Part shown: piece by piece, positions 603 through 2,228 of the stretch | Numbering within the stretch: the stretch's first letter is position 1 | Layout of the letters: each line of letters opens with the position of its first letter | Origin: a virus | Lineage: Duplodnaviria > Heunggongvirae > Uroviricota > Caudoviricetes | IMG/VR virus record: IMGVR_UViG_2778261389_000001 | Span: 1-4,849 of that record | Direction: 5' to 3' (one strand) | DNA length: 4,849 bases | Program-made: the position numbers and the translations under genes | Notes under the pieces: generated by a model | Databases searched by the model: none | What the model saw: only the letters and a program-made list of their open reading frames with translations | What the model was told of the DNA's origin: nothing

Positions 603-2228
603 TTAACGCAACAGAGACAGAACGCTCTGAGTCGTCTGGTTAGCCTGTGCCAGTACAGAAGTACCTGCCTGCTGCAGGATCTGCGCGCGGGACATGTTGG
701 AAACTTCGGTCGCGTAGTCAGCATCTTCGATACGGCTACGAGCAGAAGTCAGGTTGCCCACTGTGTTGCCTAGGTTAGTGATAGCAGAATCGAAACGGTT
801 CTGTACCGCACCCAGGGAGCTACGCAGTTTGTCAACTTTAGCCAGAGCTTCATCCAGTTTAGCCAGCGGGTTGGCAGTAGACAATGCTTTCAGGTCAGAC
901 GACTCAATAGCGTCTCCTTTAGAAGCACTCGCACCAGTAATGTTTGCCACGAATGTTTTATTACCATCGCGGAAAATAGCTTGCGCTTCACCATTTTTGT
1001 TTACTGCCCATTCAGCTGCTTTGCCGTCTGCATCCTTGATTACACTGGTGTTGCCAGTGCCTGTATCAACGTTTACTGCGAGATATTTGCCATCCGCAGT
1101 TTTAGCTACGAATTTACCATCTACGGCTTTGCCTTCTTTATCCTGAACCTGATGAATTTCTAAGTTCTTACCTTCGTGGTAAACAGAAAGCGGAGCATCA
1201 TTATAAGCGAGTTTGCTTCCTGCTTTATTTGTTGCCACATCAACTGAAACAGCGTTGTTATTGCCATCTACAGCAAATGCAGTTACGCGCCCACCAAATT
1301 TTGCAAGCTGAACAGGAGCAGTAATAGTACCTGTGCCAGCGACATCACTAACTTTTGTCTCAACTTTTTTATATCCCAATCCGTCTTGTTGCAGAAGGGT
1401 ATAATTTGCCGTTGCACTATTTTCTGCCTGCGCAACAAAATGGGTCTGACCATCAACTTCGATCTTATAAACTTTTGCAGCGGTAGCCCCACCAAGTTCA
1501 GTTGTGGTATCGCCTGTATCCACTGCGGCTGAACCAAAGTAAGTTGTAATACTACCGTTGGTTGTGTTTTTGAAATTGGCACCAAAAGCTGCACCTGCAG
1601 GCGCTCCGGTTACAGCACCGTCATTGCCATTTACATTGGTCAAACCAGGGGTTGCCTGGCTCTTTAATGCAACAGCAGAAGACATAGGTACTTTACCTGG
1701 AGCCACGCTGAAGCTACTCAGACCTAAGGTCGAAGCATCAATTTTATCGAGTTGAATTTCAATAGTTTCGCCATCGTTAGCACCAACCTGAATTTTCATG
1801 GTTTGGTCAGATGCCAGGACTTTTACGCCGTTAAATTGGGTCTGCTGAGAAACGCGATCAATTTCGCTCAGGCGTTGGGTGATTTCATCCTGAATGGAGT
1901 TCAGGTCAGAATCAGAGTTGGTGCCGTTGGTTGCCTGAACAGCCAGCTCACGTACACGCTGCAGGTTGTTGTTAATTTCAGACAGCGCGCCTTCGGTGGT
2001 CTGTACAACAGAAATACCGTCGTTGGCGTTACGGGAAGCCTGGGTCAGGCCTTTGATGTTGGAGGTGAAGCGGTTAGCAATCGCCTGACCAGCAGCATCG
2101 TCTTTCGCGCTGTTGATACGCAGACCGGAAGACAGACGCTCAATAGCGGAGCTCAGAGAAGACTGAGATTTGTTCAGGTTGTTCTGGGTCAACAGCGACA
2201 GGCTGTTTGTATTGATAACTTGTGCCAT
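603..2228 (-). CDS. fliC: Flagellin (FliC family, 541 aa); the track ORF 603-2294 over-extends by 22 codons upstream of the true start
   Basis: Translation begins [54 protein letters not shown] and ends ...[36 protein letters not shown], the conserved flagellin termini; AAGGA ribosome-binding site 9 nt upstream of the ATG at 2226-2228; the central ~270 aa are the divergent surface-exposed domain. Locus identity (canonical fliC versus an alternative flagellin locus) cannot be decided from this window. Confidence 0.95.

Follow-up and report, generated by a model that had tools for sequence, protein, structure and literature searches.

The 4,849-nucleotide (nt) stretch of DNA analysed here, hereafter the window, corresponds to positions 1 to 4,849 of the IMG/VR virus record IMGVR_UViG_2778261389_000001 and encodes an intact flagellin on its minus strand. 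The hypervariable region (HVR) at the centre of this flagellin is probably the surface domain of an accessory flagellin carried as phage cargo, analogous to fljB and flkA and situated in a cassette of the fljBA/flkAB type. Since the HVR is distant from every typed antigen, its sequence most likely defines a distinct, untyped H specificity. The elements of the cassette and of its disrupted end are as follows, in window coordinates with the strand in parentheses.

1..381 (minus): left end of the insertion sequence (IS) IS1, reaching the contig end; the terminal inverted repeat GGTGATGCTGCC starts at 381 and insA lies at 51..326
382..512 (minus): 5' remnant of fljA, 43 codons, 'repressor of phase-1 flagellin', PF03614 Flag1_repress (E 2.4e-16)
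566..585 (minus): terminator-like hairpin, GC-rich with a T-run, between the flagellin gene and fljA
603..2228 (minus): flagellin coding sequence, 541 amino acids (aa) plus stop, intact; accessory gene of the fljB/flkA kind
879..1706 (minus): HVR, residues 175-450; predicted surface-exposed, all-beta outer domains and H-antigen determinant
2278..2304 (minus): sigma-28 (FliA) class-3 promoter, TAAAGTTT-N11-GACGATAA, its end 50 nt 5' of the ATG

The flagellin gene appears in the open reading frame (ORF) listing as 603..2294 (minus strand), and its real start, MAQVINT, is situated at 2228. Flagellin_N (PF00669) occupies residues 5-142 (E 3e-46) and Flagellin_C (PF00700) occupies residues 456-540 (E 7e-31), and no Pfam family was matched between them. 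The product of 603..2228 belongs to the FliC/FljB family, with D0/D1 helical ends placed around a variable centre. Its structural model possesses long terminal helices and matches the Salmonella FliC filament structures in Foldseek (E 1e-31). At NCBI, the identical protein (P0121) is recorded as 'flagellin FliC [Escherichia coli]', and a first-pass annotation of the window had likewise placed the protein in the FliC family by its termini. The assignment to the flagellins is borne out by the two Pfam domains; a native fliC locus is contradicted by the neighbouring fljA and phage genes. The divergent fliD upstream and the fliA downstream that mark a native locus are both absent from the window, whereas the fliD-fliC-fliA order is found in the native comparison loci L006, L008, and L022. 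Antisense ORFs over the flagellin gene, for example one of 222 aa at 1752..2420 (plus strand), are unsupported and were taken as artefacts.

The HVR at 879..1706 (minus strand) is in frame, and its translation corresponds exactly to residues 175-450. Its composition (Ala 15.9, Gly 11.6, Val 9.8, Thr 9.8, and Lys 8.3%; Ala, Gly, Val, and Thr together 47%) agrees with the earlier description of a centre rich in Ala, Gly, Val, and Thr and containing Lys. In sliding windows against native Citrobacter fliC, the nucleotide identity falls below approximately 75% from around residues 166-195 and rises again at around residues 446-475; therefore, the limits of 879..1706 agree with those of the variable region to a few codons. 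For residues 168-458, AlphaFold2 gave a model with a predicted local distance difference test (pLDDT) score of 91.7. A search of the PDB with the HVR sequence returned nothing below E 0.6, and a fold search with the HVR model found no relative of the whole domain.

The comparison with typed antigens is indirect, being made against 5,426 complete E. coli genomes and a database of 5.8 billion proteins rather than a curated H1-H56 panel. No close match to the HVR exists in these genomes or in the PLSDB plasmids, and the only HVR DNA matches in the complete genomes are H16-type fliC genes, at 67% over 43% of the HVR. H16 is thus the nearest typed E. coli antigen; its FliC shares 74% of residues with the window flagellin over the full length but 54.7% in the HVR, and the two proteins align end to end with small gaps only. 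In the protein database, the nearest proteins outside the flagellin's own 90% cluster come from Citrobacter, with HVR identities of 82-85% in C. werkmanii, C. braakii, and C. freundii, and no closer protein named as E. coli was found there outside that cluster. The native fliC HVRs of C. portucalensis and C. farmeri are 73% and 64% identical, respectively, and the Salmonella plasmid flagellins, including the pBSSB1 type, are approximately 50% identical. The HVR family, with HVR identities of 34-97%, spans E. coli H16, native Citrobacter fliC, Atlantibacter, Pantoea, Achromobacter, and Halomonas, the last three being more distant members. The HVRs of H16 and Citrobacter FliC are homologous to that of the window over their full length and, similarly, match no Pfam outer-domain model. 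However, the H16, C. portucalensis, and C. farmeri alleles sit in fliD-fliC-fliA loci, unlike the window flagellin.

When the full window was compared by megablast with the complete genomes and plasmids of E. coli, the matches were confined to IS1, the conserved ends of the flagellin, and the UmuD/DinI module, and no nearly identical locus appeared. With the HVR as query, the GTDB species-representative genomes yielded a single locus, at 58%, which is uninformative beyond rarity. The first-pass annotation could assign the centre to no known H type and proposed an alignment with reference H antigens, naming a near-identical typed match as the outcome that would speak against novelty. Within the genomes and the protein database, no such match was found, and the absence of a typed counterpart stands. 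The HVR is no orphan, however, being a member of the H16/Citrobacter family. The annotation as a whole is therefore upheld for the missing typed match and for recombination at the domain boundaries (described below), and in need of correction in that the gene lies outside the native fliC locus and the HVR has known relatives.

The cassette consists of the sigma-28 promoter, the flagellin as the first gene, the terminator hairpin, and fljA. The promoter deviates from the consensus at a single position, and a match arose in 0 of 200 shuffled sequences. It is predicted from sequence, and the block that contains it is conserved in other cassettes of the fljBA kind. A co-oriented PF03614 gene lies directly downstream of the flagellin, as in fljBA and flkAB, present as a remnant in the window and as an intact gene in the related contigs L012 and L014. 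The remnant is continuous with the intact 176-aa gene of these two contigs, and 43 of its 43 residues match FljA of the Atlantibacter hermannii prophage L010. Sequences resembling fljA exist in 27 of the 5,426 complete E. coli genomes, all with at most 74% nucleotide identity to the window allele, and the window allele itself occurs in none of them.

The window fljA is cut by IS1 after codon 43. Both the terminal inverted repeat and insA are present at 1..381, and these 381 nt are 99.7% identical to the IS1 of loci L002 and L003. The intact fljA of L012 reads straight through the insertion point at 381. Furthermore, the contigs L016, L018, and L019 stop at fljA codon 43, which suggests that several carriers share the IS1-disrupted allele. 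In the assemblies GCA_006230065.1 and GCA_049552975.1, fljA is intact; in GCA_002538315.1, it is disrupted by IS1. Carriage of the fljA flank by IS1, raised by plasmid BLAST matches extending to position 400, was rejected on alignment as a chance similarity of 13/20. In a separate observation, IS1 lies just past the repressor gene in several unrelated alternative-flagellin loci of E. coli and Citrobacter (L002, 13611..14308; L003, 7629..8326; L004, approximately 8001..8381; L027, 8629..9326; and the window, 1..381). In the C. freundii islet L002, it is situated approximately 3.4 kb downstream and is not adjacent. The repressor beside IS1 is of the FljA type, except in L027, where it is TnpB/TldR-like.

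Upstream of the promoter, the window contains phage genes up to its end (2614..4849). Together with the IS1 end, they confirm the mobile-element context that was recognised in the first annotation:

2614..3003 (minus): phage UmuD-like (HumD/S24 peptidase) gene, PF00717; phrog_811 'UmuD-like' (E 2e-50)
3006..3248 (minus): 80-aa phage protein of unassigned function, phrog_3893 (E 1e-37); 5' of the UmuD-like gene and co-oriented with it
3289..3308 (no strand): LexA-box-like site TACTGTATATCCATCCAGTA, read by eye, between the UmuD-like operon and the divergent dinI
3324..3566 (plus): DinI-family gene, SOS-linked phage accessory, PF06183 (E 3e-18); phrog_189
3962..4411 (minus): tail-fibre assembly chaperone (Tfa), PF02413 Caudo_TAP (E 9e-26); phrog_188
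4408..4849 (minus): tail-fibre gene, C-terminal part (gp53-like C domain), PF21882 (E 4e-8); extends beyond the window

The window is 100% identical to contig NMFG01000096.1 of assembly GCA_002538315.1 (L017), and the identical flagellin protein has been deposited from at least 24 E. coli draft contigs, with the DinI, UmuD-like, and flagellin proteins bearing consecutive accession numbers. Down to 382, the sister contigs L012, L013, and L014 match the window with 99.9% identity, and they then continue into the intact 176-aa fljA. After fljA follow a 91-aa ORF (phrog_17793), a second dinI, and the first 34 codons of yecE, and beyond this fragment lie yecD-aspS-nudB-yebC-ruvC-ruvAB-znuBC. More than 5,000 complete E. 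coli genomes are homologous from exactly the yecE fragment onward, and the chromosomal flank (yecD-aspS-ruvABC) is 97-98% identical to E. coli. The start of core-genome homology at this point indicates that the element is inserted in yecE and that the IS1 insertion is derived. A lambdoid prophage in strain MB06232 terminates in the same DinI/yecE end. Phage genes flank the cassette up to the yecE junction, and the far end of the prophage lies beyond the retrieved E. coli sequence.

The E. coli cassette is situated behind two kinds of tail module. In L012 and L013, a siphovirus GpJ-type module is followed by umuDC; in L015-L019, including the window, the module is a Mu-like baseplate, and L015 and L016 continue from the tail fibre into Mu-type baseplate genes. 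Both backbones share the right arm, with a junction inside the UmuD-like gene at approximately window position 2942. Such a shared arm and internal junction are typical of mosaic temperate-phage recombination.

Similar arrangements were observed outside E. coli. The flagellin of A. hermannii is 98% identical overall and 97% identical in the HVR, and its gene lies in the order GpJ, tail fibre, flagellin, FljA, and integrase. A second A. hermannii prophage carries a different HVR allele at the same position. Seven IMG/VR viral contigs encode FljA with 88-98% identity; flagellin lies immediately upstream in six of them, and the seventh (L029) begins at fljA. The three complete flagellins of these contigs all have different HVRs. 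In a tblastn search of GenBank phages, no complete phage genome (0) encodes the window flagellin; the matches were tiny unannotated records and distant flagellins. PHROGs v4 contains a full-length flagellin family, phrog_16088, labelled 'unknown function', and an FljA-like family, phrog_1444, labelled 'transcriptional repressor'. Phage carriage of both genes has therefore already been catalogued, uninterpreted. From the gene orders, we conclude that the flagellin-fljA cassette is a putative cargo of temperate phages, which for E. coli we infer from the flanking genes.

The cassette itself is mosaic. The unit shared by E. coli and A. hermannii measures 2.31 kb, extending from the promoter -10 box (approximately window 2286) to 6 nt past the fljA stop. 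Between E. coli and A. hermannii, the synonymous divergence (dS) is 0.05 for the flagellin and 1.28 for fljA. In the metagenome contig L001 (2654..4359), the flagellin differs from that of the window in 2 residues. From the flagellin stop codon onward, L001 shows approximately 64% nucleotide identity; its fljA allele is 65% identical, and another dinI follows it. In the A. hermannii prophage L010, the HVR is 52% identical to that of the window and the last 91 codons have 97.8% nucleotide identity. These two comparisons place exchange points at the boundary between the HVR and the C-terminal D1 (L010) and at the gene end (L001). The first-pass annotation had pointed to the domain boundaries as sites for recombination breakpoints, and the junctions fall accordingly. 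Against the A. hermannii allele, the ratio of nonsynonymous to synonymous divergence (dN/dS) is 0.03-0.09 in the conserved ends, corresponding to strong purifying selection, and 0.57 in the HVR.

Three other explanations were weighed against that of a phage-borne accessory flagellin. It is fairly unlikely that the flagellin gene is a cryptic remnant in decay, either silent or without bearing on the H antigen, and that the IS1 in fljA marks one stage of its loss. The destruction of fljA in the window and, judging by the contigs that end at codon 43, in most carriers would fit such decay, and E. coli H-type strains are known to contain cryptic flagellin genes; expression, moreover, is predicted from a locus read only as DNA. 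However, many assemblies contain the same intact flagellin ORF, the sigma-28 promoter is also intact, the conserved ends are under strong purifying selection against the A. hermannii allele, and the sister strains keep fljA intact. A small chromosomal islet of the flk/fln kind, lying beside yecE prophages and neither packaged nor moved by a phage, is quite unlikely. In HK140, the UmuD-like gene directly abuts attP, and the DNA downstream of it could be bacterial; alternative flagellin loci of E. coli have until now been described as genomic islands, and the far prophage end in E. coli lies outside the retrieved sequence. In addition, a 2024 survey of Salmonella prophages reported fljB at prophage ends and left the interpretation open, the authors judging these cases ambiguous. 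An islet is nevertheless hard to reconcile with the further phage-type genes (the 91-aa ORF and DinI) between the cassette and the yecE junction, the same end in the MB06232 prophage, and a backbone junction located inside the UmuD-like gene and not at its end. The position of the A. hermannii cassette between a tail-fibre gene and an integrase argues in the same direction, as does fljA in the seven IMG/VR viral contigs, six of them with the flagellin upstream. Finally, the name 'flagellin FliC' given by the NCBI pipeline and the native Citrobacter fliC alleles of the same HVR family could point to the host's ordinary fliC, either a common typed H antigen or a Citrobacter-like native allele. 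This reading is extremely improbable and is refuted by context: fliD and fliA neighbours are missing, fljA lies downstream and phage genes lie upstream, the sister-contig flank is that of E. coli (yecD-aspS-ruvABC), and the best typed match, H16, reaches only 54.7% in the HVR.

Several points weigh against a phage-cargo accessory flagellin with its own H specificity, which remains the probable reading. The phage-borne status in E. coli would follow from the flanking genes and from the A. hermannii and IMG/VR cases, the integrase and the 3' part of yecE at the far end being unseen. Most carriers have the IS1-disrupted form, many contigs ending at codon 43, and the system could perhaps be undergoing inactivation. 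A larger rearrangement beyond IS1 is possible in the window strain, whose contig stops within IS1. Antibodies against H16 or against Citrobacter H antigens might cross-react despite HVR identities of 55-85%. Expression, motility, serology, and the action of FljA on E. coli fliC mRNA are all predictions from a locus known by its sequence.

In an intact cassette, the flagellin and fljA would be co-transcribed by means of FliA (sigma-28). Because its D0/D1 are conserved, the cassette flagellin would be expected to pass through the export and assembly apparatus of the host. By analogy with Salmonella FljA and E. coli FlkB, FljA would block the resident fliC, and we infer its silencing on this basis; Salmonella FljA acts on the fliC mRNA, and the biology of the FljA/FlkB repressors is summarised in PMC3378880. 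The lysogen would then display the phage-borne H antigen, amounting to a lysogenic H-antigen conversion; if the prophage were lost, the cell would revert, in a one-way switch. Neither the window nor, in L012-L014, the interval from the UmuD-like gene to the flagellin contains a recombinase ORF that could encode a serine invertase. A Hin/hix switch was considered and rejected, the best hix-like 26-mer scoring 15/24, no better than at other loci. As neither a Hin invertase nor a hix-flanked promoter was found, no reversible switch is expected. With fljA cut at codon 43, the two flagellins would be co-expressed, or the locus would gradually decay. A broader proposal, put forward only tentatively, is that phages of Escherichia, Atlantibacter, and Citrobacter may carry a second, protein-based module for flagellar remodelling, parallel in function to fliCP-tldR yet independent of it, that swaps HVR alleles and converts the H antigen. 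Under the same proposal, the HVR would be an untyped H specificity, with a confidently predicted all-beta fold that has no solved relative.

FljA-type alternative flagellin loci are known on islands and plasmids of Salmonella and E. coli (including PMC3378880). The hin-fljBA locus of Salmonella resembles the window in possessing a second flagellin and FljA (PF03614) in an operon, sigma-28 control, conserved D0/D1, and a different HVR. However, it contains the Hin switch and occupies a fixed chromosomal locus, whereas the window cassette is a putative prophage cargo, and the Salmonella HVRs are unrelated. In E. coli, the flkAB (H3, H35, H36, H47, and H53), fllA, flmA/fljA54, and flnA loci likewise provide an imported flagellin on mobile DNA, which may or may not be accompanied by an FljA-type repressor. 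Grouped with these non-fliC loci is the fljAB-pinR islet, known from S. Senftenberg, E. coli ECC-1470, and Citrobacter. The window and the E. coli non-fliC loci share a common block of promoter and 5' untranslated region, extending to approximately 90-108 nt upstream of the ATG, and IS1 is often adjacent. Nevertheless, the E. coli loci and the islet are located on integrase-bearing islands or plasmids, their HVRs are unrelated to that of the window (10-18% identity), and their fljA alleles have 67-77% nucleotide identity to the window allele. The linear plasmids of the pBSSB1 family (fljB:z66-fljA) and the Salmonella flpA plasmids also combine a mobile flagellin with fljA, confer an extra H antigen, and switch one way upon loss, although here the vehicle is a plasmid, the flagellins are approximately 50% identical, and the HVR is different.

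Prophage-encoded flagellin was reported in 2023-2026 with TldR and was called the first known example (Wiegand et al. 2023/24, PMC10705468; Nat Microbiol 2026, PMC13418256). As in the window, the fliCP-tldR system (PMC10705468, PMC13418256) consists of a temperate-phage flagellin with conserved D0/D1 and a divergent HVR, a FliA-type promoter, and a repressor of fliC, and its proposed outcome is likewise a lysogenic conversion of the flagellar surface. The difference concerns the repressor: in fliCP-tldR, an RNA-guided, nuclease-dead TnpB (TldR) blocks the fliC promoter, whereas the window encodes an FljA-family protein. No TldR lies beside the window flagellin, the downstream gene being of the FljA type, and FljA is mentioned 0 times in PMC10705468 and PMC13418256. 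In a full-text literature search of incomplete coverage, no account of phages carrying an FljA-type cassette was found, and an earlier description is possible. A further locus, L027 (9355..12190, chromosome of E. coli EC09), encodes a 622-aa flagellin followed by a 271-aa TnpB-family protein and IS1. It resembles the fliC-tldR arrangement, yet it is situated in an IS-rich island beside glaH and not in an obvious prophage.

In the upstream part of the window, the UmuD-like gene has homologues at the ends of HK140, phiKO2, and N15, phages whose tail-fibre/attP end is known to carry the UmuD-like/DinI pair as an accessory module. The arrangement of the 80-aa ORF is identical in HK140, and the gene is also called in L015. 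The LexA-box-like site TACTGTATATCCATCCAGTA has one core mismatch and overlaps a sigma-70-like promoter; no exact match to the strict CTGT-N8-ACAG pattern exists in the window, and a LexA site is annotated at the equivalent place in phiKO2. Together with dinI, the 80-aa/UmuD-like operon resembles a phage accessory module under SOS control, of the kind annotated in phiKO2 and HK140. The 395 bp between dinI and the Tfa gene (3567..3961) contain no convincing ORF, Rfam match, or tRNA, and the Rfam and tRNA scans of the whole window returned nothing. In two E. coli prophages without the flagellin cassette, a Hin/Pin-family invertase (L021, 8368..8922; L023, 7081..7632) with an invertible tail-fibre segment lies beside DinI, at the same prophage end. 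Phage invertases and cassettes of the fljBA type thus occur in one neighbourhood, which may be relevant to how hin-fljBA arose.

H typing underpins the surveillance of E. coli. Serotypers that report only fliC and the known flk, fll, flm, and fln alleles would probably miss or mis-assign the window gene, and carriers could express an antigen unlike their predicted H type. The fljA knock-out by IS1, common among the E. coli carriers read, would, if the proposed mechanism is true, make strains that express two flagellins at once. Such natural knock-outs are ready comparison strains, and a lysogenic H-antigen conversion in E. coli becomes directly testable. By analogy with the phage flagellins of PMC13418256, the conversion could affect recognition by TLR5 and antibodies, motility, and resistance to flagellotropic phages. 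With a 2.3-kb cassette that appears to move between phage backbones and genera, the locus would show that phages replacing the flagellin of their host can use a classical protein repressor as well as an RNA-guided one.

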